Notes: generated by a model not told the origin, from the letters alone. Counted from the first letter of the stretch, positions 28,872 to 59,403 are shown. The stretch: DNA of 64,000 nucleotides from Patescibacteria group bacterium (GCA_041671645.1 JBAZBD010000001.1:21561-85560), one strand, 5' to 3'. A program made the numbers and translations.

Positions 28872-28978
28872 TTACAATTTTTAATTACTAATTTTTAATT
28901 TCTAATCAAATCTTAATCATTAAAAATTTTAAATTGATTAAAACTTAGGAAATACGAATTAAGAATTAAAAGGATAAT

Positions 28979-36628: not shown

Positions 36629-38806
<2,178 letters not shown>

Positions 38807-38807
<1 letters not shown>

Positions 38808-39970: not shown

Positions 39971-40061
39971 ACTAAGCTCCAATCCGCCAAAGGGCGGAGA
40001 ATTAAGAATATTGAATATAGAATCAAGGTTCGAACCCATAATTCCAAATTCGAGATTCCAA

Positions 40062-42355: not shown

Positions 42356-44410
42356 ATGGCAAGAAGAATAAAAAGTAAAACCTGGCTCCAGGCTAATGTT
42401 TGGAAGGGAGTCCCTCAATTCGGTCTCTTTTTTGTAGCCACCTATTGTTTGTCATGGCTGCTAAATTTTTCTTTTGGCATGACTTTGTTCGGTAGTGTAT
42501 TATTATTTTACTTTCCTGGGAAACTTCTGATAGATCTAGCGCCTTGGATCAATTTTAGCTTTGGGAGATTCGGCAACATCTCGTTAAGTATCCTGTATTC
42601 ATTTTTTATTTCCACGATTATTGGATTTTTAACTCAGTCATCATTCGAGTTCAATACGATATGGCAGATTTGGTTGATTATTATTATAAATACTTTCCTA
42701 TCGATTCTTGTTTTGCTCTTTAACCGATGGAAATTATGGAAAAAAATTATTTCTGGTGAGCTAGAACATCAAAAAAAATATACTGTGGACTGGCGTGATT
42801 ACGCGACAATCATCGCATTTGCAAGTGTAATTTTGATTACAGTGGTTGCAAACCCACTGGCGCAGGACGCTGACGGCTATTTGACACAGCTTACGCGATC
42901 AATCGCCCAGAATATCAACTTGGAGCCACGGAGGCAATTCTATATCTCGTTCCTAGGTGTTTGTGCAAAATTTTTGCGAATTGATGTACTTTTTCTGTAT
43001 AGGAATGTATTCATTGCCTTATTCCTCGGCCTATCTCTCATTTTTTATGATTATTTGAGAAAAAATATACATCCTAGATTTACTGCCATTTTGTTATACA
43101 TGTCTCTTCTGGCGCCTTCCGTGATACTCACAGAAATGAATATTATCAGACCACAAGTTGGGATGATGGTTCTGACGATTCCAGTCTTGATTCTCACCGC
43201 TGCTTCAGTCAAGACTAATAATGCCCTAGCGTCAATTGTGGCCTTCACGATTTCCGTTTTCTCAATGAAGTTTCATGAATTAGGTATCTGCCTTGTGATG
43301 ATTTCCTCATTAGCGCTTGTGATAAATTTGTCACAACTAATTTTTGTCGATAAAAAAATTCCATTTAAATACGTCATTTTAGCAATTCTTATCATTCTGC
43401 CGTATATCGAGCTCTTCCATTTAGGGCAAATCTTCGCTGGTGCTACCTTTATGATTAAATATGCGCTACATTTTTTTGATTCCGTTCATTGGAGGTGGTG
43501 GTTTATAAATAACTACCAAACGATGGACGGAGCAGAGTTGGGTTGGACTGGCATTTATGCATTATTTTATTATTTGTATAATGGGATACTGTCGCTTTTG
43601 TTAGCCGTTTATCTCTCGGTTTTTCTGCTGAAAAAAAGAATCAAAGTCAGGCCTTACATTGTATTGCCACTTGTCTATATTCTTCTTTTTTTCTTGGTCG
43701 CAGAAGTTTTGCCGAGGTTGGGCCTGTTCTTTCTGCCCAATCGAGCTTGGGTCCATTTGTCGATCGGAGTTGTTATCATGACAGCCATGCTCATCGAACG
43801 TTGTCAACAACTAGGAGAAAAGAATAAGCTTTTGAACATTGCTCTTATGATATTTATTATTATGGGTTCAGCCGCAAGCTTATATGTTTCCATAAATAAC
43901 GTCTCCATTGTTTATAAGGAAGAATTGGCAGTCGCAAGATATATCAAAAATCATACACCAGCGAATTCAATAATTTTTTCTACCCAGGGCAATGCCACCT
44001 TAATTGACCTTTACAGTAACAGATACTACCATCAGCTCATCTTTGACCATAGGGTCGATAGACTCGAATTTGATAACATATTGGATAAAAATTTACGTAA
44101 TCTTGCTAGTAATACCCCTATCGTTATCCAGCCAGAGCTCAAACAACAGATAACTACCTTAGAAGATGATACCGTTGTAAGTACGAGAACGGTCTTATTA
44201 AAAAATCGAATAATTGAGAACCCTAAAATCCAGTACGATGACAAAACTGCGGTCTATTTCCTGTATTCATATAAGAAATTAAGTGGTTTAAATGCCAAAA
44301 GATCGTATCAACAAAATTCTGATGATATATTAAATCGCGAGATATATTCCGCCTTGGGATACCCTATCGTCTATGCAGATAACGGCGGGATACTGATTAA
44401 AATCAGATAG
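42356..44410 (+). CDS. large polytopic membrane protein (about 500 aa of TM helices plus about 180-aa C-terminal soluble domain), candidate GT-C (YfhO-like) glycosyltransferase
   Basis: 684 aa. Architecture and position after a GtrB-like GT2 and DUF2304. No sequence-level family assignment possible by eye. Confidence 0.45.
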   Translation: MARRIKSKTWLQANVWKGVPQFGLFFVATYCLSWLLNFSFGMTLFGSVLLFYFPGKLLIDLAPWINFSFGRFGNISLSILYSFFISTIIGFLTQSSFEFNTIWQIWLIIIINTFLSILVLLFNRWKLWKKIISGELEHQKKYTVDWRDYATIIAFASVILITVVANPLAQDADGYLTQLTRSIAQNINLEPRRQFYISFLGVCAKFLRIDVLFLYRNVFIALFLGLSLIFYDYLRKNIHPRFTAILLYMSLLAPSVILTEMNIIRPQVGMMVLTIPVLILTAASVKTNNALASIVAFTISVFSMKFHELGICLVMISSLALVINLSQLIFVDKKIPFKYVILAILIILPYIELFHLGQIFAGATFMIKYALHFFDSVHWRWWFINNYQTMDGAELGWTGIYALFYYLYNGILSLLLAVYLSVFLLKKRIKVRPYIVLPLVYILLFFLVAEVLPRLGLFFLPNRAWVHLSIGVVIMTAMLIERCQQLGEKNKLLNIALMIFIIMGSAASLYVSINNVSIVYKEELAVARYIKNHTPANSIIFSTQGNATLIDLYSNRYYHQLIFDHRVDRLEFDNILDKNLRNLASNTPIVIQPELKQQITTLEDDTVVSTRTVLLKNRIIENPKIQYDDKTAVYFLYSYKKLSGLNAKRSYQQNSDDILNREIYSALGYPIVYADNGGILIKIR

Positions 44411-44417
44411 GAACCAA

Positions 44418-45515
44418 CTAGTTGAGATGTTTTAGTAATTTGATCAACTTCTCAAATGATTTTGACCATGAATAGCTCCCCGCTGTCTCCAGGCCATTAT
44501 CGATTAACTTTTTACAAAGTTTAGAATCAGCCAAAATTTTCTTAATAGCGGAGGTTGTTTCTTCCGGTCTATTTACCGCGGTGACAATGCAATTTTCCTT
44601 ATTCTTCGCATATTCTCTGGCTCCGACAGTGTCAGTCAAAACCACAGGGGCACCTGACGCCATCGCCTCAAGTGCTGGTAAACCGAAGCTTTCTCCTAGG
44701 CTAGTATTCACGTAGATCAGTGCCCTACTATAGATCTCTGCAAGCTGTTCCCTATCTTTGTATTTTATAAATTCTATTCCGTTCACAATTCTGTCTTCAA
44801 CTGTCGGGGATACTACCTTCGCTTTAATCTCGGGGGAATCTCTTTTGATAATTCTATAAGCTTCCTTAAAAATATGGAAGCCCTTCGGTCTTTGCGGTCG
44901 GCCAACGAAGAGAAGATAATTATCCCTTTTAAGGGAACTCTGATGGAATTCAGGATCAATGCCGTTCTTTACCACCACTGATTTGACCTTGGAAACGCTT
45001 CTCAGGGCTTTTTCTGAGCTATCCGAGACACATACTGCAAGAGCAATGTTTTCAGTGATTTTTTTGTTCCCAAGCATCCGTTTGATAAAAGGGCCGGCCC
45101 AAACCATCTCAAAGAAATCTTGAAAAAGAAAAACAATTTTTGCTTCGAGTTTTTTTTGCTTTTTGGCTTTGATGATTGCCGGTAGCAAAGGAGTATAGAT
45201 CGGAATTAGAAAATCGCACTCTGAAATTAACCCAATTATTTGTTTGAAATAAATTTTCTGGAGAAGAAAGAAATCAACATACCTGATCGGAAAAGATTTA
45301 TATTGTTTGAGCGTAATTCTCCTGTCGATATCAAAAAGAGTTTGGCGGTCAGCAGAGATAATTGTAACCTCGTGGCCACTCTCGGCCAGGAAGTTTGCAT
45401 ACCTGAGCATGACCAAATTACCACCATGCATCTCTAAATTGGGGGTCAGGAAGGTAATTTTCATTTCAGTTTGTCCGTCATCTTTTTTCTCATCGACATC
45501 AGCAGCTTTATCCAC
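44418..45515 (-). CDS. glycosyltransferase family 4
   Basis: ESFGLPALEAMASGAPVVLTDTVGAREY motif. Confidence 0.75.
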   Translation of the reverse strand: MDKAADVDEKKDDGQTEMKITFLTPNLEMHGGNLVMLRYANFLAESGHEVTIISADRQTLFDIDRRITLKQYKSFPIRYVDFFLLQKIYFKQIIGLISECDFLIPIYTPLLPAIIKAKKQKKLEAKIVFLFQDFFEMVWAGPFIKRMLGNKKITENIALAVCVSDSSEKALRSVSKVKSVVVKNGIDPEFHQSSLKRDNYLLFVGRPQRPKGFHIFKEAYRIIKRDSPEIKAKVVSPTVEDRIVNGIEFIKYKDREQLAEIYSRALIYVNTSLGESFGLPALEAMASGAPVVLTDTVGAREYAKNKENCIVTAVNRPEETTSAIKKILADSKLCKKLIDNGLETAGSYSWSKSFEKLIKLLKHLN

Positions 45516-46429
45516 GGTCCGTTAAAGACAACAAACGCAAAGATTGAAGTGAACAAATAGGGCACAAAAGCAACAAGCCAATAGTTATTCTCTCGGTAAT
45601 AACTCCAAAGAATTTTATTCATTTCCTCTCGAGACAAGCAATCCTTGATACCCGACTCATCCTCCACAAACTTACGCTGTTCCCTGCTGATCACATGGGT
45701 GGGTCCGGTTGAGAATAAGTCTCTTGTCCTCTTGCCATACTCAAGTTTGTCGATAACGGTAAATTTTCCGACATTAACATCACGCATTCCCTTATTTACT
45801 AAGACTGGTGATTTTCCAGTCAAGAAGAACGGAACCCCGAGATCCACAGCGTTAAGAAGATAGGTACCAACATCGTTGGAGGTGGCATACTTATGACTCG
45901 AAAGTATCCTATAAAAATTTCTGACAAAATCTTGGCTATTCGAAATCCTCGGCCCAGCCGATGTAACGCTAAAGCCTTCATTCCGATAAATATCAGCGCT
46001 CTTGTCAATAAAATCCAACCAGAAGAGGCAGATGGTGACCGGCTGGAATTCAGCCGGAAGAGTTTTAAGCTCCTTACAATATTCCTTGATATTAAAGTCG
46101 CTTTTTAGGAAATAAGTTGAATGACTCGGGAAAACAACTGTCCCCTTTGCGTCAGATTTTATGGTAATTTTGTGGGCATTTTTGTAATGGATGTATGGAG
46201 ACCCCATTACATACGCCGGAATTTTGCTTTTCTTGCGCCAAGCCAAGACCATCCGTTTATTGAAAAGAAAAACACAGGGTTTATCAGTGCTAAGGTCGCT
46301 CACTGCCGGCTCCAAGAGAATGCTCCACCCGTGGTCGATATGACAGGGTAACGGCAGAAACCGTGGAAAGCGAGCGTAGTCTTTCAAAACTTGGTTAAAA
46401 CCGTAATTTCTGCCCTCTGTATATTGCAT
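45461..46429 (-). CDS. hypothetical protein with C-terminal TM helix (glycan-locus protein)
   Basis: 322-aa ORF coupled to neighbours. No recognisable motif. Confidence 0.4.
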   Translation of the reverse strand: MQYTEGRNYGFNQVLKDYARFPRFLPLPCHIDHGWSILLEPAVSDLSTDKPCVFLFNKRMVLAWRKKSKIPAYVMGSPYIHYKNAHKITIKSDAKGTVVFPSHSTYFLKSDFNIKEYCKELKTLPAEFQPVTICLFWLDFIDKSADIYRNEGFSVTSAGPRISNSQDFVRNFYRILSSHKYATSNDVGTYLLNAVDLGVPFFLTGKSPVLVNKGMRDVNVGKFTVIDKLEYGKRTRDLFSTGPTHVISREQRKFVEDESGIKDCLSREEMNKILWSYYRENNYWLVAFVPYLFTSIFAFVVFNGPWIKLLMSMRKKMTDKLK

Positions 46430-46483
46430 AGGTGTCCTAGCGTTAAAAACAACTGTTTAGTAAAACCCATTCCGGCCTAAAGC

Positions 46484-47437
46484 CTAGACCGACGGTTTGA
46501 AGGTCGTAACAAAATATGGTTTAAGTTCCGGATTAAAGCTGAGCTTAAAGTCTCCTCTGTTTGGAGAATTTGCCCCGACAAAATCGACCTCGCTGAGCTT
46601 TTTATCCATTGCATCACGTACAGCATCAGCCAACAATAATGTGCCTGCGTTTAGATTGCGATAATCCGGATGATTTGCCCCGAATAAGTAGAAACCGGAT
46701 CGGTCATCAAAGATAAATAGATTGGCGGCAACCGGCACGCCGTCGACTTTGACACAGGTGAGTCTGCCATAGTGATTATCGAGGGCGCTCTTTGTGATAC
46801 TTCTCAAAAGAAGCGACTCTTTTTCATCACGCTCGATACCTTGGCGCTTAAAGGTTTTATCATGCAGGTCATCCAAAACCATTTCATCGTCAATTTCCTC
46901 GATCTTCAAATTCTCAAAAGCTTTCTTGATCTCCTGCCTTCTTACTTTTCGAATCGTGCCCAGATACTCATCAAAGCTTTCATGCTTCCGGAGATCCAAG
47001 ACGGCTGAATATCTCAACACCAGATTGTATACTCCCTTCTCCGGCTCATGATAATTGAACCATTGAAACGGCCGCATATCAACAAGGCGCCAAGAATGAC
47101 ACAGACACAATTGCCCATAGTGTTCAGTGCACTCAGCGATTAAGAATTCAGTAACCTTAAATTCCAGCGACTGTCGGCGATGTGGCTCCAAAGCTGAATT
47201 ATCAGCAAGCGACAAGCCCTGATACTCGGTGAAGGGAAATACGCCGGAGATAGGACCATCATCGCCAAATAGCACAACCAGACCGGCAACGATCTTATTG
47301 TCCTCGGCACAAGTAACAAGCTCGTATTTTGTATTTAAAGAATTTAAAAACTTTGTCGACACAAATACGCTTCTTTGTGGCGAACTATGGACAAATTCAT
47401 CCCAAAGCTCGGCACTCTCTCCGAATTTTATCTCCAT
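46484..47437 (-). CDS. FemAB-like / GNAT-fold (acetyltransf_6) acyl- or aminoacyl-transferase
   Basis: 317 aa. N-terminal half resembles the FemABX substrate-binding half; C-terminal half is acetyltransferase-like. No catalytic motif I can verify by eye. Confidence 0.4.
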   Translation of the reverse strand: MEIKFGESAELWDEFVHSSPQRSVFVSTKFLNSLNTKYELVTCAEDNKIVAGLVVLFGDDGPISGVFPFTEYQGLSLADNSALEPHRRQSLEFKVTEFLIAECTEHYGQLCLCHSWRLVDMRPFQWFNYHEPEKGVYNLVLRYSAVLDLRKHESFDEYLGTIRKVRRQEIKKAFENLKIEEIDDEMVLDDLHDKTFKRQGIERDEKESLLLRSITKSALDNHYGRLTCVKVDGVPVAANLFIFDDRSGFYLFGANHPDYRNLNAGTLLLADAVRDAMDKKLSEVDFVGANSPNRGDFKLSFNPELKPYFVTTFKPSV

Positions 47438-47449
47438 ACTATACTCTCG

Positions 47450-48757
47450 CTAATTAGTTAACTGGCCTCTATTCTCCCAGACTTTTTTGAATGCGTTCGC
47501 CACATCATCCAGATCATCCCTCGTCATCGGCGGTCGCATTAATTCATGAGTTACCAGTAATTCGTAATGCATTTTTTCAGTGACCGGACAGATGCCTTTT
47601 TGATAAGAAACGTCATCATTATAAAAAGCACACTTCCATGGGCAGCCTTTGTCGCCATACGCTATTTTTTGCTGAAAAATCGGCTGGAGGTAGAGTGGCT
47701 TCACATAGCCTGTCCCTATTTTCACCCCCTCAGTTTCCCTCAGTTCTATGGGAGCCAGCTCTGCCTTGACGGCTTCAATAAATTTTTCTCTAGTGACTCC
47801 GGCTTTTGCCTCATCAAATTTAATCGCGTGCAGGTAAAAAACATGTTCGCTCTCCGGCCTGACCTTCGCAACCTCAAGACAGGGGATCTGATTTAGTTTA
47901 TCATTGAGATAATTAACGTTGTCAATTCGATCTTTTATCAGCCCAGCTAACTTTCTAAGTTGTACTTGAGCAATCGCTGCCTCAATCTCAGTCATCCGGA
48001 GATTGAAGCCGACCATATTTACTAAATCGCCGACACCTTTATTCTCAACAACGGCTTCAGCGTGGTTCCTTATTAGCCTGATCTTTTCGGCAAGGTCGTC
48101 ATCATCGGTCACGACGATACCGCCCTCACCAGTATGAATATGTTTATGGTAGTTCAGCGAGTAAACACCGATATCTCCGAGAGTACCGGCCCATCTCCCT
48201 TTATATTTAGCTCCTGGAGCCTGGGCACAATCCTCGATAACCAGCAGATGATGTTTCTTTGCGATTGCATTGATCTTATCAGCGTCATACGGTTGGCCGA
48301 ATATGTCGACTACAATAATTGCCTTTGTTTGTTTAGTAATTTTTGCCTCAATCGATTCGGGAGACAGACAAAAGTAGTCCTCCTCAATATCGGCAAAGAC
48401 TGGAATAGAATTAAAAATCAGAGGAGCAGTTGCAGAAGCTGACATCGTATAAGGCGAAACGATAACTTCGTCCCCTGGTCCGGCGCCAACGGCGCCAACG
48501 GCACAATAGAGTCCGGAGGTAGCAGAGTTAACTGAAATTGCATGTTTTACGTTAAAATATTTTGCCCATTTTTCCTCTAGCGCACGTACTTCTGGCCCGC
48601 CATAAAAATCCTCATGCCATGCTCCTAGAAATTTGGATAACACGCCGGACTCAATAACTTTTTTAGTTATCTCAGTCTCTTCTTGCCCCAGAACTCTATA
48701 TGCAGGAAAACTTTTGGCTCTGGTCTTCTCGCCACCGTTAATCGCTAATTTTGGCAT
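47450..48757 (-). CDS. DegT/DnrJ/EryC1/StrS-family PLP sugar aminotransferase (second copy, C-terminal extension)
   Basis: Motif ...DCAQAPGAKYKGRWAGTLGDIGVYSLNYHKHI with PLP-lysine. About 60-aa C-terminal extension. Confidence 0.8.
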   Translation of the reverse strand: MPKLAINGGEKTRAKSFPAYRVLGQEETEITKKVIESGVLSKFLGAWHEDFYGGPEVRALEEKWAKYFNVKHAISVNSATSGLYCAVGAVGAGPGDEVIVSPYTMSASATAPLIFNSIPVFADIEEDYFCLSPESIEAKITKQTKAIIVVDIFGQPYDADKINAIAKKHHLLVIEDCAQAPGAKYKGRWAGTLGDIGVYSLNYHKHIHTGEGGIVVTDDDDLAEKIRLIRNHAEAVVENKGVGDLVNMVGFNLRMTEIEAAIAQVQLRKLAGLIKDRIDNVNYLNDKLNQIPCLEVAKVRPESEHVFYLHAIKFDEAKAGVTREKFIEAVKAELAPIELRETEGVKIGTGYVKPLYLQPIFQQKIAYGDKGCPWKCAFYNDDVSYQKGICPVTEKMHYELLVTHELMRPPMTRDDLDDVANAFKKVWENRGQLTN

Positions 48758-49878
48758 AAACTCTGCTCCATATAATCAATTACTCTTTTCACCGGATCTT
48801 TTATTAATTTGAATTCAGCCATCTTCTCTCTTCCGCCGTTTATAGCCGATTTGATCCGGAAATTCAGGGTTCCTTGGTCTAAAATACTTCTCATTAGCCC
48901 AATCCGGTCCAGAACGAAGGGATTGTCCCCTTTGAGCCCGATCTGGATGCTGATCGTCGGTTTACCTAAAATATAAGATTCCAACAGGAACATCGAAGAC
49001 ATCCCACACACAAGATCTGATATTTTTATTAAATCTTGGGAGCAAGAATCCCGATCCAAATATACTTTTATATTATCGCTCTTCAGCTTATTGATCAACC
49101 CATCATAATAGCTTTCGTCCTCTTTGGGGTGAAGTTTTATTATCAGAGAAATTTTAAAGTTTTTCTTAACGTCCTCTATATCAGACAACGCTTCGTGCAA
49201 GCTACAAAATGTCGTGATTTCGTCATAACCAAAGTGTTCCCTAGCATCGCCATATATTTTTCTGATCGGCTCTGAAGCGTAGGTCACAACATAATTGGAG
49301 TGAGAAAGACGATATTTCTTTCTGATCTTTTCCAAAGCATGAGTATCAAATTCTCTATTCTTTAAATACTCGAAGTACGGCTGTCCAGAGACTAAAATCC
49401 GATCTACGGGCAATCCGGCCAAAATCGCCTCACTTTTAGCCAGCTCATCCATCACCAATATCTTTGATGGCAGATACTCATGCTGAGGGTTCTTCTTATA
49501 TTTATCGACATTAGAAACGCCCCATTTTGAAAAACGGATTCCGTAATTTACCCACTGATCCAGAATCGCAAATGAGGGAATGTCCATAATCATGGCCGAT
49601 GACCAAAGATATTTTTCCGTCATATCATCGGCGCTCGTACCGGTAATGATAAAATCTGGTTTTTGGATGAGAAGAAACCCCTTGATCTCTTTTGGACTTA
49701 TTTCTTTGATCTCTTCGGCGATCGGCAAAGCGTGGATTCCGTTTTGGTTAAAACGAGTCATCGCGACATCCTTGCCGAATACTACAACCTTATATCCCCT
49801 CTGTTTCAATGGTTCAAAAAGAGGAATAACCGTGTTAGCTCCGCCGGGATCTCTGGCAAACAGAAGAATTTTCTTCAC
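48745..49878 (-). CDS. GT-B-fold protein, candidate PseG-like UDP-sugar hydrolase / surface carbohydrate biosynthesis protein
   Basis: 377 aa, Rossmann-like halves. C-terminal DLIKISDLVCGMSSMFLLESYILGKPTISI resembles the MurG/PseG GT28 C-domain. The assignment relies largely on position in the operon. Confidence 0.35.
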   Translation of the reverse strand: MKKILLFARDPGGANTVIPLFEPLKQRGYKVVVFGKDVAMTRFNQNGIHALPIAEEIKEISPKEIKGFLLIQKPDFIITGTSADDMTEKYLWSSAMIMDIPSFAILDQWVNYGIRFSKWGVSNVDKYKKNPQHEYLPSKILVMDELAKSEAILAGLPVDRILVSGQPYFEYLKNREFDTHALEKIRKKYRLSHSNYVVTYASEPIRKIYGDAREHFGYDEITTFCSLHEALSDIEDVKKNFKISLIIKLHPKEDESYYDGLINKLKSDNIKVYLDRDSCSQDLIKISDLVCGMSSMFLLESYILGKPTISIQIGLKGDNPFVLDRIGLMRSILDQGTLNFRIKSAINGGREKMAEFKLIKDPVKRVIDYMEQSLCQN

Positions 49879-49880
49879 CC

Positions 49881-50834
49881 TTACGATCCCTTCATATTAA
49901 TAGCCGTTTCTAGATCAGCAATGGCCTCTTTGGCTGAGCACAGAAGCGTTTCTTTTTTTGTTAAATGTGAGAATATGTTATCGGCGGCAAAGTATATAGA
50001 CCTATTTAGCGAAGTCTTGAGGTTGTTCTCCTTCACTAGGTATTTATAACCTTCGAACTCATCGCTCTTCTCTACCCGCCAAATCTCAACATCATTTCCT
50101 GAATTGCGTATCTGAATTCTACCGCTAGCAAAAAGGAGTTCCAGTTCGAAGATTGTATAGTTTTTCGAGCCTATCGCCAAGAATGCAACATTGCCTGAGT
50201 TTATCTTCAGAATACCACTCACCGATGGATCGTCAGTAGAAAAATCATTCTCTCTCGCAAAAGGTTCAAACGCACCGGCTTCCCCCAAAAACATCCGAAG
50301 AAGATCGACCATATGCGAGCCATTATGCATAACGCCCTTACCATAGTAAGCCGTACCACAGATAAAGTTACCATATTCGCCTGCCTTAACAGCCTCGGCC
50401 AAATTTATTAGTTCCGGGACAAACCGCCTAGAATAGTTGACCTGCAAGGCGATACTGCGCTCCTCACAGATTTTTACAATCTCCACGGCCTCTAGTAACG
50501 TTTTGGTAATTGGCTTCTCAGCAAAGATAGCCTTGATCGACTTGGTCATCAATGATTTTAGAATCTCCGCATGGAAATCGTCTGGCACGCAAACGCTGAC
50601 AACATCAATGGATTCTGATGAAAATGCTTCGTCAATATCCTTAAAACTACGACATCCCCACGCCTTGGCTGCTTTCGTGCCCCTCTCAGTGTCATTATCG
50701 ACAAAACCAACCAGCTTAAAACCAGGATGTTCGGTATAAGCGTGAGCGTGTGTGATGATGTTTTTGCTGTTGGGAGTATCAAAATACGCTCCAATTTTCC
50801 CAGCTCCAACAATTAAAGCTTTAAGTTTGTCCAT
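49881..50834 (-). CDS. Gfo/Idh/MocA-family NAD(P) oxidoreductase
   Basis: N-terminal Rossmann fold ALIVGAGKIG, typical length. Confidence 0.75.
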   Translation of the reverse strand: MDKLKALIVGAGKIGAYFDTPNSKNIITHAHAYTEHPGFKLVGFVDNDTERGTKAAKAWGCRSFKDIDEAFSSESIDVVSVCVPDDFHAEILKSLMTKSIKAIFAEKPITKTLLEAVEIVKICEERSIALQVNYSRRFVPELINLAEAVKAGEYGNFICGTAYYGKGVMHNGSHMVDLLRMFLGEAGAFEPFARENDFSTDDPSVSGILKINSGNVAFLAIGSKNYTIFELELLFASGRIQIRNSGNDVEIWRVEKSDEFEGYKYLVKENNLKTSLNRSIYFAADNIFSHLTKKETLLCSAKEAIADLETAINMKGS

Positions 50835-51528
50835 TATTTTCCAAAATTTTGTACTTCATCTCGGCGATCTTCCAGTCCTCCAGGGTGTCGATATCCTGAA
50901 CCTCTGATTCAGGTATCTCTACGGGGACAGCATCATCAAGAAATGATTTCTTCTGAGCCAAAAATTTTTCTGTATTATACCAGTAAAACTGGCCACTATC
51001 GTGGTAGGACGATTCCAGATCCTGCGAGTGTTTATGCATATTCTCTGGCCAAATCATTTTTAAGCGGTCCTTTTCAATTTGGAAAGCTCGCTGGATCGGA
51101 AAGCTATATTTTACGACTGCCACAACCTGATCAGCGTGATTTTCCCTTAATTTCTGAAAGCCTAATTTCAATCTTTCAGCATTTATAAACGGTGCGGTCG
51201 ACAAAATCACGCAGAAATTGTCAAAAGATTTGCCCTCCTTCTCATATCTCTTGATCACTTCCTCAAAAACATCAATGAGGTTGGCCTTGCTGTCAGAGTT
51301 CTCCCGACTTCGTAAAAAAGGAACCTTGGCGCCTGATCTTCGTGAAATCTCTGCAATCTCTTCGTCATCTGTCGAGACCATTACCTCGTCAAAACAGCCA
51401 CACTTTACGGCAGCATCGATAGAATATTTAAGAATTGGCTGACCAAGAAAATTTTTGACATTTTTTCTCGGAACTCTCTTGCTACCACCACGGGCGGGGA
51501 TAATGGCTAATGTTTTGCTCTCCATCAT
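50821..51528 (-). CDS. pseF: acylneuraminate/pseudaminate cytidylyltransferase
   Basis: LAIIPARGGSKRVPRKN cytidylyltransferase motif. Start trimmed to an internal Met. Confidence 0.8.
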   Translation of the reverse strand: MMESKTLAIIPARGGSKRVPRKNVKNFLGQPILKYSIDAAVKCGCFDEVMVSTDDEEIAEISRRSGAKVPFLRSRENSDSKANLIDVFEEVIKRYEKEGKSFDNFCVILSTAPFINAERLKLGFQKLRENHADQVVAVVKYSFPIQRAFQIEKDRLKMIWPENMHKHSQDLESSYHDSGQFYWYNTEKFLAQKKSFLDDAVPVEIPESEVQDIDTLEDWKIAEMKYKILENNGQT

Positions 51529-51551
51529 ATAAACCTCGGTCATGATTAATT

Positions 51552-52595
51552 CTAAATGTGCATCCAATTAAGTGGCGTACCCTTTTCTAGGTGTTTTTTG
51601 GCTCTTTTACCCAATATTGCATTGAGATGTTTCGGCGGTAACCCAAAGCCTGGCCTAACCGATCGTATGTTGTCAGTAGTAAATAATTCACCTCGTTCAA
51701 TATTCTCTGCTACAAAAAGTGACCGACAGAAATCTCGGCTCTTGCTTGCCTTTTCGGTCAATTCATAATTCACCTTGCCAAGAGATTCTTCTACTTCTCG
51801 AATAGAACTAACCATTTTGCGAAAATCTTCTGGTTCCATAGAGAAAGATGCATCTGGCCCACCAATTTTTTTATCCAATATGAAATGCTTCTCAATTATC
51901 TTTGCGCCAAGAGCACAGCTAGCGATCGGAATCGCTGAACCAATGGTGTGGTCAGATAAGCCAGCAATCGCTTTCAGCCTCCGACCGATGTCTGGGATCG
52001 TTGCTAAATTTATCTCCCTCAGAGGTGCAGGATATGACGAAGTGCATTTAAGTACTGCAATTTGGTTATTACCCATTCTTCGACAAGCGGCAATAGCATC
52101 CTCTATATCTGATAACTCCGCGACACCTGTCGCTAGTATCATCGGCTTGCCTTTCGACGCGGTATATTCGATCAACGGAATATCTGTAATTTCAAAAGAA
52201 GCAATTTTGTAAGCAGGCACATCCATTTTTTCTAGAAAATCGACAGCCGTATTGTCAAAGGGAGTCGAGAAACACTCCATGCCAAGATCATTGGCGATTT
52301 TCTTGAGCTTCGGCTGCCACTCCCATGGCATAGAGGCCTCTTCGTACAATTTATGAAGATTTTTACCATCCCAGATTGTGCCCTGCTTGATCTTGAAGTA
52401 ATCATTGTCGCAATTTAGTGTAATAGTATCCGCAGTGTAAGTTTGCAACTTTACGGCATCTGCACCTGAATCTCTCATCGCCCTAACAGTGTCCGCTGCT
52501 ATCTCGAATTTGTTTCCATGGTTGGCCGATAATTCGGCGACAATGAATGCCGGAGCTCCATCACCAATCGTTTTATTCCCAATCTTCAATCTCAT
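51552..52595 (-). CDS. pseI: nonulosonic acid (pseudaminic acid) synthase, NeuB family
   Basis: IGDGAPAFIVAELSANHGN...AVKLQTYTADTI, NeuB TIM-barrel plus C-terminal antifreeze-like domain. Confidence 0.85.
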   Translation of the reverse strand: MRLKIGNKTIGDGAPAFIVAELSANHGNKFEIAADTVRAMRDSGADAVKLQTYTADTITLNCDNDYFKIKQGTIWDGKNLHKLYEEASMPWEWQPKLKKIANDLGMECFSTPFDNTAVDFLEKMDVPAYKIASFEITDIPLIEYTASKGKPMILATGVAELSDIEDAIAACRRMGNNQIAVLKCTSSYPAPLREINLATIPDIGRRLKAIAGLSDHTIGSAIPIASCALGAKIIEKHFILDKKIGGPDASFSMEPEDFRKMVSSIREVEESLGKVNYELTEKASKSRDFCRSLFVAENIERGELFTTDNIRSVRPGFGLPPKHLNAILGKRAKKHLEKGTPLNWMHI

Positions 52596-53134
52596 CGGGA
52601 TCTCTTTCTTAAATCACATTTACAGCGTAAGAATTTCTCTCCGCTTATAACACTTTCTTTCTCGAAAACGAAACCGGCATATTCAGAGTTTCTGACAGCT
52701 GCTAGATTGTTTGGTTTTATGTCACCAGTAGCAAAGCTTATTTCGGGCCGATATTTTTTTAAGTAGTCCATGCCTCTGATAAGAAGAATTTTGCCAAGAC
52801 CATATCCCCTAAACCTTTTGTGAAGACTAACACCGGTCAAGGCCTCGTCCCCTTTGAGATCAAATCTTACTTGACCAGCAAAAAGGCCCTTAGTTTCAGC
52901 GATCAGAAAAATATAATTCTTATCGCAAATTTTTCTGGCGAACCACGCCTTATGGTTCTTAAAATCTAATTTTTCTTGATTTACGGAATTTTTTCTTACC
53001 AAGGGATCATTAAAAAGATAGAAGATCTTTTTGCAATCTTTCTCGGTAGCCAACCGAAGTGTTACGTTGTCTCTAATTTCGTTTTTATCCATTGCCACCT
53101 TAAATAATATAAGAATACGGCGCAAACTCCGCAT
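52592..53134 (-). CDS. GNAT N-acyltransferase (PseH-like)
   Basis: 180-aa GNAT fold (RFRGYGLGKILL). Position matches pseH. Confidence 0.6.
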   Translation of the reverse strand: MRSLRRILILFKVAMDKNEIRDNVTLRLATEKDCKKIFYLFNDPLVRKNSVNQEKLDFKNHKAWFARKICDKNYIFLIAETKGLFAGQVRFDLKGDEALTGVSLHKRFRGYGLGKILLIRGMDYLKKYRPEISFATGDIKPNNLAAVRNSEYAGFVFEKESVISGEKFLRCKCDLRKRSR

Positions 53135-53936
53135 GGTCTTTGCTAATATATCCTATAATGCCTCTTAATTCAGCGTTTGTAAATTCAATCTCATCCTCAA
53201 GATGATCTAATTTGATTGGAAAAGCTTGGATTGTTGCTCCTCGGGGAAAGGATTTGTGCTTATTTGCCATACGCAAAACCCGAGGAAAATGCGGCGAGTG
53301 AGTCACAACGCCGATTATGTCTCCGATATTGAATTCAATGTTCGGAAATTTTAAATCGGTCACCTGATCAATGGTACAAGTGATAGTTCCGTCGGGTATA
53401 CAGAGCTTCTCCTCCGGGAAATTTAGCTTGCCTATTCTGACAGCACTCCTTAAAGCTTCTATTTGTATTTTAACCCCGTTGTAGATTAGATAAGGCCCAA
53501 ATTCTCTGATAATATTTTCGACCTGTTCTTCAGTCAAACTTTTTTGGTCTTCTTCTGAGAGTCCTGAGACAGCAAGACTAATTTCCCGAATAATTTTTAT
53601 GGCGTGGTCAATTCTTTTTTTATCGGAATTGTGCGCCCAAGTTTTATCCTTATAGATAGCATCGCCTGTCAAATCAGTGATCGACTCCTGATAAGTCCCA
53701 GCCCCAGAGATCGCCCAAATCGCTTTGTATGTTTTTGGTTTTTCGTGGTCAAACTGTATCGGTTTTGAAGCTGCTTGATCCAAACTCTCAATTTCAAGAA
53801 CAACTGTTTTTATGAGATGATCGAGCCGATCCTCGTGACCACGCCAATACTCTCCATGCTCTTCAGTCGCATAGTCGAGGAGGGCCGGACTATCAATCCC
53901 TTTAGTTAATTTTGATATAGTTTTTTTCTCATTCAT
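53100..53936 (-). CDS. hypothetical protein within the nonulosonic-acid operon
   Basis: ORF with GGAG RBS 10 nt upstream of ATG (MNEKKTIS...). No recognisable family. Confidence 0.45.
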   Translation of the reverse strand: MNEKKTISKLTKGIDSPALLDYATEEHGEYWRGHEDRLDHLIKTVVLEIESLDQAASKPIQFDHEKPKTYKAIWAISGAGTYQESITDLTGDAIYKDKTWAHNSDKKRIDHAIKIIREISLAVSGLSEEDQKSLTEEQVENIIREFGPYLIYNGVKIQIEALRSAVRIGKLNFPEEKLCIPDGTITCTIDQVTDLKFPNIEFNIGDIIGVVTHSPHFPRVLRMANKHKSFPRGATIQAFPIKLDHLEDEIEFTNAELRGIIGYISKDHAEFAPYSYII

Positions 53937-53977
53937 ATGATCGACTCCGCAATCTTTCCATACAAGAGGCATCGACG

Positions 53978-54712
53978 CTATAGCCAACCGCCGTTGATAC
54001 CGATACATTCTCCGGTAATATAGCTGCTGTCGTCAGAAGCCAAAAAAATGGCTAGTTTCGCAATTTCTTGCGGTTTGGCTAATCTGCCAAGAGCAATTTT
54101 TGGCAAAACTTTTGTTTTCATTATTTCATCTGGGACTCCGGCCACCATATCAGTTTCTGTAAAACCGGGGCAAATGGCGTTGACTGTGATACCGTATCGT
54201 GCCGTTTCCTTGGCCAGAGACTTGGTCAGGCCGATCAAGCCGGCCTTGGCGGCGCTATAGTTTGTTTGGCCGAAGTTACCGATCTGAGCTATAATGGAGG
54301 AAATATTGATGATTCGCCCTCCGCCATTTTCAACCATTTTAGGTAAAAATTGTTTGATGATGAAAAAGGGGCCGTAAAGATCAGTTTTAATCACGGCGTC
54401 CCAATCCTCGAGAGACAACTTCAATAGCGTTCTATCTCTAGCAATACCAGCATTATTTACCACAACATCCACCTGGCCAAATTGATCCAGAATTTTCGCG
54501 CAAGCTTTTTCTACTTCTTCGTAGTTAGCTACATCAAAGTAGAATATGGAGCTCTTGGGAGAAATTTCTTTGACCTCAGCGACGGTCTGCTTGGAAGCGT
54601 CGTTTTCTTTGGTTCCCGTCATCGCTATTGTATAACCATTTTTCGCGAACTCCAGGGCCATACTTTTGCCAATTCCTCTGGTCGATCCAGTGATAACAGC
54701 AATCTTATTCAT
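53978..54712 (-). CDS. short-chain dehydrogenase, FabG/PhaB-like (acetoacetyl-CoA / 3-oxoacyl reductase family)
   Basis: TGSTRGIGK ... NNAG ... YSAAKAG catalytic tetrad region. Confidence 0.8.
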   Translation of the reverse strand: MNKIAVITGSTRGIGKSMALEFAKNGYTIAMTGTKENDASKQTVAEVKEISPKSSIFYFDVANYEEVEKACAKILDQFGQVDVVVNNAGIARDRTLLKLSLEDWDAVIKTDLYGPFFIIKQFLPKMVENGGGRIINISSIIAQIGNFGQTNYSAAKAGLIGLTKSLAKETARYGITVNAICPGFTETDMVAGVPDEIMKTKVLPKIALGRLAKPQEIAKLAIFLASDDSSYITGECIGINGGWL

Positions 54713-55889
54713 AGTTTTCTATCAGCATCGCAATGCCCTGACCACCACCAATACAAAGCGAGGCTACCCCATATTTTAATTTTCTTCTTTTGAGTTCATG
54801 GATGAGACTGACCAAGATACGAGCGCCACTTGCGCCAATTGGGTGGCCGAGGGCGATAGCTCCACCGTTTACATTAACAATTTTTTCATCTATACCAAGT
54901 AGTTTCAAGGCAGCAACACTTTGGCTGGCAAAAGCCTCGTTTAGTTCCCAAAGATCGATATCTTCAATCTTGAAATTTGCCTTCTTGAGGCAAGCAACTA
55001 CTGCATAATAAACACCCATACCCATGATCTTGGGATCCAGACCAACAGAAGCATAACTCATAATCCTAGCCATGGGCTTGATTTTCTCATTTTGAACAAA
55101 TTTTTCAGAGGCAACGAAGATAACCGCAGCTCTATCATTTAAGGATGAGGAGTTGCCTGCTGTCACGGTGCCGTCTTTGTCGAATATGGGCTTCAACTTA
55201 GCAAGCGCCTCAAACGTTGTGTCGGCACGGGGTTGCTCGTCAATTTTGAACTCCGCCATTTCTTTCTTCTGCTTCACCAGAACAGGAACAATCTCATCTG
55301 ACAGACGGTTCTCCATCATGGCCGCAAGGGCTTTCTCATGACTTCTGAACGCAAATCGATCCTGGTCTTCCCTAGAAACTTTGTATTTCTTGGCAACATT
55401 TTCAGCTGTTACCCCCATATGTTCGCCGATCAAGGAACAAAATAATCCATCAGTAATCATACTATCTTTGATCGTCTGATCTCCAAGTTTTACTCCGAAC
55501 CGATGATCATCAATTAAATATGGGCTACGGCTCATGTTTTCCATCCCACCAGCGACAATCAAGTCTGCTTCTCTGAGCTCGATCGCCTGGCTGGCCAAGG
55601 TAATGCTTTTTAACCCTGATCCACAAACCTTGTTTACTGTGTAGGCCGGAACTGATTCAGGAATTCCTGCCTTGACGCTAGCAATTCTGGCCGGATTCTG
55701 CCCCAATCCAGCAGACAAAACATTGCCAAGAATAACTTCTCCGACTTTCTTTTCAATCCCTGGATTCTCGGCAATCAAATTTTTGATAACAGCCGCAGCA
55801 AGCTCTGGTGCTGAGCTACCCTGAAGACTACCACCGAATTTTCCAACGGCTGTTCTTTTGGCTGAGACGATATACACATTTTCTTTCAT
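54705..55889 (-). CDS. acetyl-CoA C-acetyltransferase (thiolase II)
   Basis: Thiolase signatures NKVCGSGLK (active-site Cys) and C-terminal CIGGGQGIA. Confidence 0.85.
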
Positions 55890-55910
55890 AACATATTCCT
55901 CGGCTCCTAG

Positions 55911-57062
55911 TCAGCTGACCAGTATTTTTATTTTTTGGATAACAAAGTTTACTTCAACATCGGTCATTTTTGGATACAATGGTAAGCTCAAACACTGCTC
56001 GTAATACGCTTCTGCAACAGGATAATCCCCAACCTTATACCCGTATGTGTCTTGATAATAAGGCTGCAAGTGAGCAGGAATATAATGAACCTGCGAGCCA
56101 ACATTGTTTTTCCTTAATTCTTCCATCACCTCTTTGCGCGTCTTACCAATTTTAGCAAAATCAATTTTTAATACGTAAAGATGAAATGCAGAGCCGACGC
56201 CTGGCTTTTCATAAGGGGTAACGACATTTGGAAGTTTAGCGAACGCTTTATTGTATTTATCAACGATTTCCCGACGGCGTGCAGCAAATTTGTCAAGTTT
56301 CCTAAGCTGACTCAAACCAAGCGCAGCTTGTATGTCAGTAATACGATAATTGAAGCCAAGATCTTGCATTTCATAGTACCAAGGACCGGGATTTTGGCTT
56401 AATATTGCTGGATCTTTGGTGATACCATGAGATCGAAGCAGGAGCAACTGTTTGTATATTTTTTCATCATTTGTAGTGATAGCCCCGCCCTCTCCAGTAG
56501 TAATCGTCTTAACCGGATGGAACGAGAAGGTCGTCAGATCGGAATATTTGTTTGACCCAACCTTACTGCCATCAGCAAACGAAGATCCGATAGAGTGAGC
56601 GGCGTCCTCAATTACATAAATGCCTTTACTCTTCGCAAAATCGTATATTTCCTCCAAGTCGGCGACCTGGCCAGCAAAATCGACGGCCACAATTACCTTG
56701 GTTTTGTCGGTCACTCTCTTCTTGATTTCCACTAGGTCAATATTGCAGGTGTCCTCCCTGATATCCGCGAAAGCAGGGGTTAGCCCGCAATAAGCAAGGC
56801 AGTTGGCTGAAGCAACAAATGTATTGGGTGTGGTGATCCCCTCACCGTTCCCTAAATTTAATGCTAAAACGGCCAAATGGAGGGCGGCCGTGCCGTTGGA
56901 GACGGCGACACAATGTTTTGCGCCAGTATATTTGCAAATTGCCTGCTCAAACTCCTCTATTTTTGGACCTTGTGTCAAGAAGTCGCTTTTGAGCGTTTGG
57001 ACAACTTCAGCGATATCGTCGTCATCAAGCCACTGCTTGCCATATGCAATAAAACTATTCAT
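55911..57062 (-). CDS. pseC: UDP-4-amino-4,6-dideoxy-N-acetyl-beta-L-altrosamine transaminase (DegT family)
   Basis: YGKQWLDDDDI N-terminus, PLP motif. Immediately downstream of pseB with overlap. Confidence 0.8.
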   Translation of the reverse strand: MNSFIAYGKQWLDDDDIAEVVQTLKSDFLTQGPKIEEFEQAICKYTGAKHCVAVSNGTAALHLAVLALNLGNGEGITTPNTFVASANCLAYCGLTPAFADIREDTCNIDLVEIKKRVTDKTKVIVAVDFAGQVADLEEIYDFAKSKGIYVIEDAAHSIGSSFADGSKVGSNKYSDLTTFSFHPVKTITTGEGGAITTNDEKIYKQLLLLRSHGITKDPAILSQNPGPWYYEMQDLGFNYRITDIQAALGLSQLRKLDKFAARRREIVDKYNKAFAKLPNVVTPYEKPGVGSAFHLYVLKIDFAKIGKTRKEVMEELRKNNVGSQVHYIPAHLQPYYQDTYGYKVGDYPVAEAYYEQCLSLPLYPKMTDVEVNFVIQKIKILVS

Positions 57063-57063
57063 T

Positions 57064-58062
57064 TTAATACACAATCTCTATTGATTTCAAAAATTCTGTA
57101 ATGCCTTTTTGATCCAACCACTCATCGTTTAAATCTGAGGAATAGCGGAATCCCTCCATCACTTTCTTGCTCCCTGGTTTGCAATGAATTTTTGGGTTCC
57201 ACCAATCAAAATCTGGATAGATAATGTAGTGATCGCCGTAGTCATGGGTTAATCTGGAGTCTTCCTCAGTGATCATGACTTCATGAAGTTTCTCCCCTTC
57301 CCTGATGCCAATTTCTTTAAGCTTGACCTCTTTGTGCATCGCTTTGGCCAAATCAGTAATTTTGACAGACGGGATCTTGGACACATAAATCTCGCCGCCT
57401 TTGGCTTCTTTGATCGCCTTAAATACAAGATCGACGCCTTGATTGAGAGTTATTAAAAATCGGGTCATACGGAAATCAGTGATCGGAATTATTCTTTGGC
57501 CAGAATCTAACAACTGTTTGAAGAAAGGTATGACTGAGCCGCGGCTACCGGCAACGTTGCCATATCGGACTACAGAAAAAACTGGGCCCTTGCCCCCAGA
57601 GTAAGCGTTGGCGGAAACAAACAATCTATCAGAGACTAACTTGGTGGCCCCATAAAGGTTGACTGGATTGACAGCTTTATCGGTAGAAAGAGCAACTACT
57701 TTCTCGACCCCGCAGTCCAAAGCCGCATCGATTACATTCTCTGCGCCGTGAATATTGGTTTTGATGGCCTCCATCGGGTTGTATTCGGCTATCGGCACAT
57801 GCTTCATAGCGGCCGCATGGATCACAATATCTACTCCATTGAGGGCCCTCTTCAGACGATCTTTGTCACGGACATCTCCGATAAAGTAACGCAGCTGACT
57901 GTCATATTCGGCGAACTGTCGGCGCATCATGTATTGCTTATACTCGTCACGAGAATAAATGATGATCTTTTTTGGTTTATATTCAGACAAAATCCGCTTA
58001 GTAAATTGCTTACCAAATGAGCCGGTCCCACCCGTGATTAGAATTGTTTTATTATTTAGCAT
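57064..58062 (-). CDS. pseB: UDP-N-acetylglucosamine 4,6-dehydratase (inverting)
   Basis: ILITGGTGSFGK, IIYSRDEYKQ, GDVRD, YGATK motifs and overall high similarity to the FlaA1/PseB family. Confidence 0.85.
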   Translation of the reverse strand: MLNNKTILITGGTGSFGKQFTKRILSEYKPKKIIIYSRDEYKQYMMRRQFAEYDSQLRYFIGDVRDKDRLKRALNGVDIVIHAAAMKHVPIAEYNPMEAIKTNIHGAENVIDAALDCGVEKVVALSTDKAVNPVNLYGATKLVSDRLFVSANAYSGGKGPVFSVVRYGNVAGSRGSVIPFFKQLLDSGQRIIPITDFRMTRFLITLNQGVDLVFKAIKEAKGGEIYVSKIPSVKITDLAKAMHKEVKLKEIGIREGEKLHEVMITEEDSRLTHDYGDHYIIYPDFDWWNPKIHCKPGSKKVMEGFRYSSDLNDEWLDQKGITEFLKSIEIVY

Positions 58063-58110
58063 ATCCGTACCTCTTAATAATCAAGTAGAAAAATTTGTAA
58101 TTGTCTCGAC

Positions 58111-59403
58111 TCACTCGCTCATTACTTTCTTTATATAGAAACGCTGAATCGCTATCGTGATACAATAGTTTGCTATCAGAGTCCCAATCACTAAAGACAC
58201 GGAGAAGAAGCTAAACCTCACAGCCACTATATAGAGGCAAATCGCTAAGAAATTTACTCCATATGTAGTTAACAGACATTTCCTATAATATTGTTCCGAA
58301 AAATCAAGAATGATTGTAGCATATATCGATTGGAACAGAAAGACAACTGAGAGCACGGAGAAGCCAATAACATAAAATAAACTGACCGGGTATTGCCGCC
58401 CAAATATTGATAACATTATTAGAGTCAAGCAAGATGCAAGAACAAACAGCGGCAGGAACCCAATACAAAAGATTTTATCAATTTTTTTAATAAATGCTTT
58501 GTCTTTTACCCGAACTGTAGCAGGGAAAAATACGTTGTTAAACAATTGCCCAGCTTGTGCGATCAAGGTAAAAGAAGAAAAATAATAGGCACTGTATATG
58601 CCAAACGCTGTGAATCCAAGATATTTCGCAATTATTATTTTGTCAGCGGATAAGAAAATCGTGCCAAGCAGCGCGCTTATGAGAAACCATTTCCCCTCCC
58701 TCAAAACAGCCAATGAATCAGTAAAGTTACTTTTGCCAAAATATCTTTTAAGATAGGATAGATAATAAATCGATATTGCTATAGCCCCAGCGACTAGAAC
58801 TGAAACGAATCCCGCAAATGTGTGATCTTTTAGGACAAAAAACACCGCGATAAATAGAACGGCAACGATAATCACCTCGAATATCTTAGCCTTAGCCTGA
58901 ACTTTGAACTCCTCCAGCCCTCTAATGGACGAATCAAATAAAGTTTTAGCTGAGAAAACAATTGTGTAGCATATGAGCATCAGAAAAAAGGATTTTCCTC
59001 CAGACATTATCCGGCTCACAAAAGGATAAACTATTGGCGAGAGGACCACCAACCCGACTAGCACCAGAAAAACAATGTTGCTTATTGATGAGATAACCCG
59101 TTTTCTAGCTTTAACGGAAGGGTCTCTCGCGATGCTTCTGATAAGTACTGTATCCAGACCCAAAAAAATGAAAATAATTAAATACTGATTTGCAACCAGC
59201 ATGAGATTGTATTTTCCATACTCGATCGGTCCCATGAAGCGCCCAGCCAGGGTGGTAATCAGCATGAGAATTGGTAAGGCTCCGATGCCAGACAAAAAGG
59301 ACCACGATAGGCGAGTTAAGAATGACCGCATCTCATCCCCCATCTCATGACCGAAGACCTTGAGGTGGACTTTTTCGACAAATTGTACTAATCTTTTTTT
59401 CAT
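58111..59403 (-). CDS. Wzx-like polysaccharide flippase (second copy)
   Basis: 430 aa, about 12 TMS, MOP-family organisation. Confidence 0.5.
   Translation of the reverse strand: MKKRLVQFVEKVHLKVFGHEMGDEMRSFLTRLSWSFLSGIGALPILMLITTLAGRFMGPIEYGKYNLMLVANQYLIIFIFLGLDTVLIRSIARDPSVKARKRVISSISNIVFLVLVGLVVLSPIVYPFVSRIMSGGKSFFLMLICYTIVFSAKTLFDSSIRGLEEFKVQAKAKIFEVIIVAVLFIAVFFVLKDHTFAGFVSVLVAGAIAISIYYLSYLKRYFGKSNFTDSLAVLREGKWFLISALLGTIFLSADKIIIAKYLGFTAFGIYSAYYFSSFTLIAQAGQLFNNVFFPATVRVKDKAFIKKIDKIFCIGFLPLFVLASCLTLIMLSIFGRQYPVSLFYVIGFSVLSVVFLFQSIYATIILDFSEQYYRKCLLTTYGVNFLAICLYIVAVRFSFFSVSLVIGTLIANYCITIAIQRFYIKKVMSE

Follow-up and report, generated by a model that had tools for sequence, protein, structure and literature searches.

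This study concerns a 64,000-nucleotide (64-kb) stretch of DNA from a Patescibacteria group bacterium (GCA_041671645.1 JBAZBD010000001.1:21561-85560), hereafter the window, with positions counted from its first letter. Its minus strand carries an operon of 15 tightly packed genes (44418-59403; intergene junctions of -16 to +54 nt) centered on the biosynthesis of pseudaminic acid (Pse), a nonulosonic acid. A sequence-only reading had described the unit as a Pse-type operon with its own thiolase and acetoacetyl-CoA-reductase-like enzyme, predicted to yield a 3-hydroxybutyryl-decorated sugar in an organism with a reduced genome. Our open reading frame (ORF) map, together with Pfam and NCBIfam scans, recovered every gene it had listed, on the same strand and at the same positions; the unit is larger than was proposed, adding a Wzx-type flippase gene at its start and a 322-aa gene and a GT4 glycosyltransferase gene at its end (Table 1). 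Identical proteins are on record in a Patescibacteria-group metagenome-assembled genome (MAG), on an 867,751-bp contig, which confirms a small-genome bacterium of the candidate phyla radiation (CPR) as host. Family calls were judged against NCBIfam equivalog cut-offs and Pfam gathering scores. On balance, and with limited confidence, we favor the reading that the operon builds CMP-activated Pse and makes its own 3-hydroxybutyryl donor, with a DUF218-like protein (DUF218L) replacing the UDP-sugar hydrolase PseG.

The Pse core consists of PseB, with an IIYSRDEYKQ motif at residue 34, PseC, PseI and PseF, all of which exceed their equivalog cut-offs and thereby bear out the Pse-type assignment. 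Scores against the LegB, LegC and NeuB models are much lower, which places the pathway with Pse rather than with legionaminic acid (Leg) or sialic acid (Neu). The sequence-only reading had asked whether its NeuB-family protein might be a sialic or legionaminic acid synthase; this protein passes the PseI model and, at 296 bits, remains under the cut-off of the NeuB sialic-acid model (399.65). No operon protein matches the PseG model TIGR03590, and an enterobacterial PseG hidden Markov model (HMM) detects no PseG in the window or in related loci.

Inserted into this core are a biosynthetic thiolase and a short-chain dehydrogenase/reductase (SDR). The thiolase scores 477 bits against TIGR01930, over its cut-off of 240.55, and its top PDB match is the acetyl-CoA acetyltransferase 4wyr (E 7e-133). 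The catalytic triad Cys89/His349/Cys379 is intact and the CGSG, GHP and CIGGG motifs are present; Patescibacteria and Microgenomates proteins are among its closest relatives (58-73% identity). The SDR carries the TGSTRGIG (TGxxxGIG), NNAG and YSAAK (YxxxK) motifs, falls slightly short of the cut-off for acetoacetyl-CoA reductase as well as that for FabG, and has the acetoacetyl-CoA reductase 3gk3 as its top full-length single-domain PDB match. Its start overlaps the thiolase stop by 8 nt, an overlap also found in two other loci (L001 and L012), and these overlapping start and stop codons place the pair within the operon.

Table 1. Operon genes in order of transcription, followed by other features of the window
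Feature	Position	Strand	Evidence
Wzx-type flippase, operon gene 1	58111-59403	-	Pfam Polysacc_synt 80.5 bits
PseB, inverting UDP-GlcNAc 4,6-dehydratase	57064-58062	-	TIGR03589 537.6 bits (cut-off 407.75)
PseC aminotransferase	55911-57074	-	TIGR03588 500.2 bits (cut-off 423.5)
Biosynthetic (type II) thiolase, acetyl-CoA C-acetyltransferase	54705-55889	-	Pfam Thiolase_N 307 bits, Thiolase_C 167 bits
FabG/PhaB-type SDR, proposed acetoacetyl-CoA reductase	53978-54712	-	TIGR01829 (acetoacetyl-CoA reductase) 272 bits (cut-off 302.1); TIGR01830 (FabG) 282 bits (cut-off 297.75)
DUF218/YdcF-like 278-aa protein (DUF218L), proposed non-orthologous PseG replacement	53100-53936	-	Position, fusions, co-occurrence
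GNAT N-acyltransferase in PseH slot, proposed 3-hydroxybutyryl transferase	52592-53092	-	Acetyltransf_3
PseI, pseudaminic acid synthase	51552-52595	-	TIGR03586 486.5 bits (cut-off 340.25)
PseF, CMP-pseudaminic acid synthetase	50821-51567	-	TIGR03584 292.8 bits (cut-off 205.7)
Gfo/Idh/MocA sugar oxidoreductase	49881-50834	-	GFO_IDH_MocA 83 bits
377-aa putative nonulosonate (Pse) glycosyltransferase	48745-49878	-	Partial BFO_1060, TIGR04396 and A-2_8-polyST matches
Second DegT-family aminotransferase	47450-48757	-	DegT_DnrJ_EryC1 301 bits
FemAB/Acetyltransf_6-like acyl- or aminoacyl-transferase	46484-47437	-	Acetyltransf_6 62 bits, FemAB 38 bits
Terminator-like hairpin, first within the operon	46492-46472
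322-aa conserved protein	45461-46429	-	No Pfam or NCBIfam match
GT4 glycosyltransferase, final operon gene	44418-45515	-	Glycos_transf_1 95 bits
NUDIX hydrolase	60939-61478	+	NudE-like, 54 bits
S-adenosylhomocysteine hydrolase, PfkB-family kinase, SAM synthetase	36629-40039	-
Two tandem Wzy_C paralogues (O-antigen ligase/polymerase-like)	25032-27576	-
Second Wzx/MurJ-like flippase	30233-31660
Large ORF	42356-44410	+	No Pfam match at E<=1e-4
Large ORF	35104-36597	-	No Pfam match at E<=1e-4
Large ORFs	27690-30232	+	No Pfam match at E<=1e-4
Large ORF	21287-22498	+	No Pfam match at E<=1e-4

The DUF218-like protein in the PseG position

DUF218L, which lies between the reductase and the GNAT, had been called an unassignable 279-aa protein. 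Its start at the ATG at 53936 gives 278 aa, equal to database protein P0001, and the lack of a significant family match holds: NCBIfam returns nothing and Pfam only a sub-threshold hit to DUF218 (PF02698; E 0.002, 18.4-18.7 bits against a gathering score of 27.6). Among 66 relatives, 12 match Pfam DUF218 at E<=0.01 (best 8e-08), none of them shown over the gathering score. An exhaustive HMMER search yielded 142 representative relatives, of which 17 have E-values under 1e-30; those that are named are all "hypothetical" or, in the case of fusions, "GNAT family", and the family profile finds only chance hits among PDB sequences. Structure prediction had been suggested for this protein in the sequence-only reading. 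The AlphaFold model from the 66-sequence alignment is confident (predicted local distance difference test (pLDDT) 96.2; predicted template-modeling score (pTM) 0.93) and adopts a Rossmann-like fold shared with YdcF. A glycine-rich SGxG loop follows the first strand, R108, R219 and E256 are invariant, and H213 is nearly so; these residues fit a nucleotide-binding enzyme, a fit that proves nothing by itself. A true Pfam DUF218 member of 236 aa also occurs in one related cluster, between pseB and pseC (L010:2069-2779), besides the DUF218L of that cluster (L010:6179-7027).

DUF218L is not PseG: TIGR03590 does not match it, and hhalign of the family against E. coli PseG returns a probability of 2.75%. 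Its genomic setting nevertheless mirrors that of PseG. E. coli clusters are ordered pseG-pseH-pseI, and the window reads DUF218L-GNAT-pseI. At least five DUF218L representatives are DUF218L+GNAT fusions; correspondingly, the 512-aa "pseG" of E. coli O165 is a PseG+GNAT fusion, and in E. coli 08-00022 (O136; L016:9831-12410) a single 859-aa ORF annotated "pseI" comprises PseG, GNAT and PseI. A locus search with a 12-sequence DUF218L alignment returned one genome locus and seven metagenome loci. DUF218L is present in at least 13 Pse-type loci, and the family HMM matches every Pse-type locus collected. These include loci with neither thiolase nor SDR (L006, L022 and L024), and the protein is missing from a non-Pse amino-sugar cluster (L013), indicating that DUF218L tracks the Pse pathway and not acyl supply. 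The missing step, the position, the fusions and the co-occurrence with Pse genes together suggest that DUF218L does the job of PseG. An acyltransferase role, the option offered earlier for this protein, was rejected as unlikely, given its YdcF-like, Rossmann-like fold, its place in the PseG slot and its occurrence beside a GNAT in the three clusters without thiolase and SDR.

Thiolase, reductase and the acyl group

Outside the window, the thiolase-reductase pair adjoins Pse genes in no fewer than six further metagenomic lineages, and two distinct thiolase subfamilies are represented. One further organism shares the pseC-thiolase-SDR-DUF218L-GNAT-pseI core, its proteins being 65-73% identical to those of the window. 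The pair stands with DUF218L and GNAT between pseC and pseI in L001/L002, and L005 reads thiolase-SDR-[DUF218L+GNAT fusion]-pseI. In L012, whose thiolase is 66% identical, synteny extends over the whole operon, and the FemAB gene alone differs, a 185-aa GNAT occupying its position. More distant Pse clusters with both enzymes (L004 from a Berkelbacteria MAG, L009, L010/L011 and the P0005 contig) have a different, Thiolase_C_1-type thiolase. Beyond Pse, the classic pair recurs on a Microgenomates contig (L013) in an amino-sugar cluster with a PseB-like dehydratase, a DegT protein, an FdtA-like protein and two left-handed beta-helix (LbH, Hexapep) acyltransferases, and with neither NeuB nor DUF218L. 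The pair therefore tracks N-acylated amino sugars, just as DUF218L tracks Pse.

This recurrence, together with a lack of polyhydroxybutyrate (PHB) or beta-oxidation partner genes across the ~43 kb of surrounding glycan genes, agrees with the earlier claim that these two enzymes specifically serve the glycan operon. As judged from gene context, the pair behaves like a cassette attached to pathways for N-acylated amino sugars in small-genome lineages, and the most economical reading of its enzyme families is that it makes (R)-3-hydroxybutyryl-CoA. The recurrent synteny thus strengthens the central proposal of the sequence-only reading, which stays a prediction all the same.

Additional features of the related clusters were observed. 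SDRs paired with the Thiolase_C_1-type thiolase share a conserved N-terminal extension of ~70-80 aa (MPLPPRKSxYAIGI...QIDRKFFGxLxIG) with no Pfam match, for example at L004:12362-12640, L009:6187-6450 and L010:8254-8520. This extension might dock the reductase onto the thiolase; its assignment as a DUF35-type domain was considered and found no support in Pfam. Two DUF218L-bearing Pse clusters (L022:3074-5412 and L008:1391-2227) encode subunits of 2-oxoacid:ferredoxin oxidoreductase (POR/POR_N and TPP_enzyme_C), positioned between pseC and pseF or beside DUF218L, and small ferredoxin genes lie 5' of pseB in L010 and the P0005 contig. These POR and ferredoxin genes may constitute a second kind of in-cluster acyl-CoA supply. 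An aldo/keto reductase, a class-III aminotransferase and a second CTP_transf_3 cytidylyltransferase recur in L004, L006, L009 and L010 (L010:3944-6178 and 9226-10017, for instance) and are absent from the window.

The candidate acyltransferase is the GNAT, which had been termed PseH-like. It does occupy the PseH position; membership of the PseH family fails, at 16.9 bits against a TIGR03585 cut-off of 93.1. It aligns with the GNAT domain of the E. coli O165 PseG fusion at 30% identity over 103 aa (E 2e-8) and with canonical PseH at E 1e-3. A k-mer homologue search returned six close relatives, none informatively named, and a PDB search gave no significant match to the 3-hydroxybutanoyl transferases FdhC and QdhC.

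Downstream genes and the surrounding glycan island

Downstream of pseF, the Gfo/Idh/MocA oxidoreductase scores 23 bits against WbpB/WlbA and is not close to them; the module that follows pseF is syntenic in L012 and L020. The second DegT protein matches perosamine synthase, 2-deoxy-scyllo-inosose aminotransferases and the Kdo8N transaminase KdnA about equally in the PDB. The 377-aa protein between them had been tentatively compared with the GT-B enzyme PseG, a suggestion that did not hold: no PseG model matches it, and it weakly resembles nonulosonate-transferase-type families instead. Its scores express resemblance only (BFO_1060 family glycosyltransferase, 60.6 bits against a cut-off of 200; TIGR04396, 23.9 against 125), and it is best read as a putative Pse transferase. 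A single-sequence AlphaFold2 model (pLDDT 37) was unusable, and the question of a PseG-like GT-B fold accordingly rests on the HMM results. The 322-aa protein has a strong homologue in L009 (L009:12858-13832, E 1e-113), directly 3' of a gene resembling that for the 377-aa protein, and probably belongs with the Pse transferase as a conserved partner.

The first terminator-like hairpin within the operon lies just 3' of the FemAB-like gene. At the other end, a wzx gene is also found 5' of pseB in L001, L012 and L025, and the unit is best explained as a Patescibacteria operon for a surface glycan that depends on Wzx. Divergent from it runs rmlA-rmlC-nudix-rmlB-rmlD, a dTDP-rhamnose operon with the NUDIX gene inside. 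From 21 to 64 kb the window forms a glycan island with GT2 and GT4 genes, two Wzy_C proteins and a second flippase, and probably encodes more than one glycan. In its middle lie genes for S-adenosylmethionine (SAM) synthetase (MetK), S-adenosylhomocysteine (AdoHcy) hydrolase and a PfkB kinase; these SAM-cycle genes hint at methylated glycans. Large ORFs without a Pfam match in the island encode proteins of 684, 403, 393, 417 and 497 aa.

Proposed pathway, alternatives and known systems

In the favored reading, PseB and PseC, both equivalog-level matches, would convert UDP-GlcNAc to UDP-4-amino-4,6-dideoxy-beta-L-AltNAc. In parallel, the thiolase would condense two acetyl-CoA to acetoacetyl-CoA, which the translationally coupled PhaB/FabG-type reductase would reduce to (R)-3-hydroxybutyryl-CoA, as family membership, catalytic residues and conserved pairing suggest; this reduction would draw the unfavorable thiolase reaction forward. 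The GNAT in the PseH slot would then acylate the 4-amino group, the future N7 of Pse, and DUF218L would release UDP in place of the absent PseG. PseI would join the free sugar with phosphoenolpyruvate, and PseF would yield CMP-Pse5Ac7(3Hb), in which 3Hb is the 3-hydroxybutyryl group, the latter two steps following from equivalog-level assignments. CMP-Pse5Ac7(3Hb) is thus the most likely predicted product. The 377-aa protein may install the sugar on a glycan, which Wzx, by its family, would flip, and the Gfo, second DegT and FemAB-like proteins could form an oxidize-aminate-acylate module leading to a further N-acylated amino sugar. Judging from the window, the host presumably lacks fatty-acid and PHB metabolism as a source of 3-hydroxybutyryl thioesters, which would explain why a supply cassette travels with the glycan genes.

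Several points weigh against this reading. The acyl group is predicted from enzyme families alone, and the SDR fits the FabG and acetoacetyl-CoA reductase models equally well, just under both cut-offs. Since the window covers only 64 kb of the 868-kb contig, genes for PseG or for other enzymes that consume acetoacetyl-CoA could lie outside it. DUF218L has no experimentally characterized hydrolase homologue, and its sole structural relative, YdcF, is described as SAM-utilizing. It is accordingly conceivable, if rather unlikely, that DUF218L is a tailoring enzyme or accessory factor, for instance SAM-dependent like YdcF, and that UDP is released by the 377-aa GT-B-like protein, by the NUDIX hydrolase of the rml operon with a phosphatase, or by a PseG outside the window. 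The presence of MetK and AdoHcy hydrolase in the same glycan island and of the nearby NUDIX gene would suit such a scheme. A NUDIX enzyme, however, would yield a sugar-1-phosphate, and PseI needs the free sugar; homologues of the 377-aa protein are absent from L010, L022 and L024, which have KpsS-like transferases instead. Moreover, all examined Pse-type loci have DUF218L and none has PseG, and the parallel between the DUF218L+GNAT and PseG+GNAT fusions, like the shared gene order, argues for a hydrolase.

The identity of the acyltransferase is the other point of dispute. The similarity of the GNAT to the O165 domain, from a 3Hb producer, is weak, and the L012 orthologue fits the GNAT domain of O136, which we take to be a diacetyl producer, at least equally well; this BLAST comparison is undiscriminating, and acyl specificity cannot be read from the sequence. 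An Antibiotic_NAT-type acyltransferase gene comes immediately after the SDR gene in L009 and on the P0005 contig, and the window has its FemAB-like enzyme; it could be one of these two types that actually uses the acyl-CoA. The Pse pathway would then give ordinary Pse5Ac7Ac, with the GNAT as a divergent PseH using acetyl-CoA, and 3-hydroxybutyryl-CoA would serve the FemAB/Acetyltransf_6 protein acting on an amine made by the Gfo and second DegT enzymes, or the Antibiotic_NAT-type enzyme in other loci. Both the second oxidize-aminate-acylate module in the same operon and the FemAB-like gene in L010/L011 are compatible with this scenario, which we consider decidedly unlikely: the pair lies with DUF218L and GNAT between pseC and pseI (window, L001/L002 and L005), 4-6 kb from the FemAB gene, L012 retains thiolase, SDR and GNAT without FemAB, and enzymes of the FemAB family usually draw on aminoacyl-tRNA, not acyl-CoA. 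It is highly improbable that thiolase and reductase are housekeeping enzymes (mevalonate entry, PHB or lipid metabolism) merely inserted in a glycan operon, for although both belong to large housekeeping families and a related Patescibacteria thiolase (L014) lies outside any glycan context, L014 has no SDR, and the pair is kept inside the Pse clusters of at least seven lineages with two thiolase subfamilies, recurs in the L013 amino-sugar cluster, and shows overlapping start and stop codons with no partner enzymes nearby.

Pseudaminic acids are important sugars of cell surfaces and flagella, at which vaccines and inhibitors are aimed, and PseG has been regarded as a fixed step of their synthesis. 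If a non-homologous enzyme does perform the PseG step, the detection of Pse pathways in genomes would change, and clusters without PseG would no longer count as "incomplete". The in-cluster cassette would offer ultra-small-genome bacteria, presuming that they lack fatty-acid and PHB metabolism, a route to unusual surface acyl groups, and the gene set could serve as a compact, portable source for heterologous production of CMP-Pse5Ac7(3Hb). The island suggests that ~5% of the 0.87-Mb contig is invested in surface glycans. A bolder extension, possible though short of probable in our view, is that DUF218L represents a new class of nucleotide-sugar hydrolase replacing PseG in CPR and related uncultured lineages, that the clusters are modular with plug-in acyl-CoA cassettes (thiolase and reductase here, 2-oxoacid:ferredoxin oxidoreductase in L022), and that the Gfo/DegT/FemAB-like module may act on the ulosonic acid. 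If that is so, one branch of the DUF218 superfamily would acquire its first enzymatic function. For the module, the KdnA/KdnB route to Kdo8N offers an analogy, by which a tri-amino, aminoacylated nonulosonate would result.

Like PhaA/PhaB, the thiolase-reductase pair has conserved catalytic residues, two adjacent, translationally coupled genes and the same two predicted reactions; unlike them, it is embedded in a glycan operon with no PhaC nearby, and the window proteins fall short of the PhaA and PhaB equivalog cut-offs (350 vs 740 bits and 196 vs 436 bits, respectively). E. coli YdcF (PDB 3ca8), of the DUF218, SanA/ElyC-type proteins, shares the fold of DUF218L at only 16% identity, and DUF218L differs from it in an extra N-terminal helical region, a nonulosonate biosynthesis context and the occurrence of GNAT fusions.

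The predicted product itself is probably a sugar already known. Pse with an N-(R)-3-hydroxybutanoyl group is established: Acinetobacter baumannii makes it with psaABCGHF (PMC9676051), and E. coli O165 and Shigella boydii O7 likewise contain Pse5Ac7RHb (PMC7685785, PMC3726653). These three modules share with the window the predicted product, with 3-hydroxybutanoyl at N7, and a GNAT-superfamily acyltransferase. The O165 cluster (galF-pseB-pseC-pseF-pseG(+GNAT)-pseI-wzx), however, has a canonical PseG fused to its GNAT and contains neither thiolase nor reductase, presumably drawing its acyl donor from general metabolism, which makes in-cluster supply genes the distinctive feature of the window operon. 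Within the library searched, no published description of an in-cluster thiolase or reductase with Pse genes was found, nor any relevant paper on DUF218 proteins or CPR bacteria in connection with nonulosonic acids. FdhC and QdhC of the dTDP-Fuc3N and dTDP-Qui3N pathways are a precedent for N-acylation of amino sugars with 3-hydroxybutanoyl groups (PMC4869667, PMC3726653), on different acceptor sugars and in clusters without supply genes. Compared with the canonical PseB-PseC-PseH-PseG-PseI-PseF pathway of Campylobacter and Helicobacter and of E. coli O-antigen clusters, the operon retains equivalog-level PseB, PseC, PseI and PseF and the hydrolase-acyltransferase-synthase gene order; it differs in a GNAT far under the PseH cut-off and in the two features that appear new here for CPR bacteria, namely an inserted thiolase and reductase as in-cluster acyl-CoA supply and a DUF218/YdcF-like protein in place of PseG.

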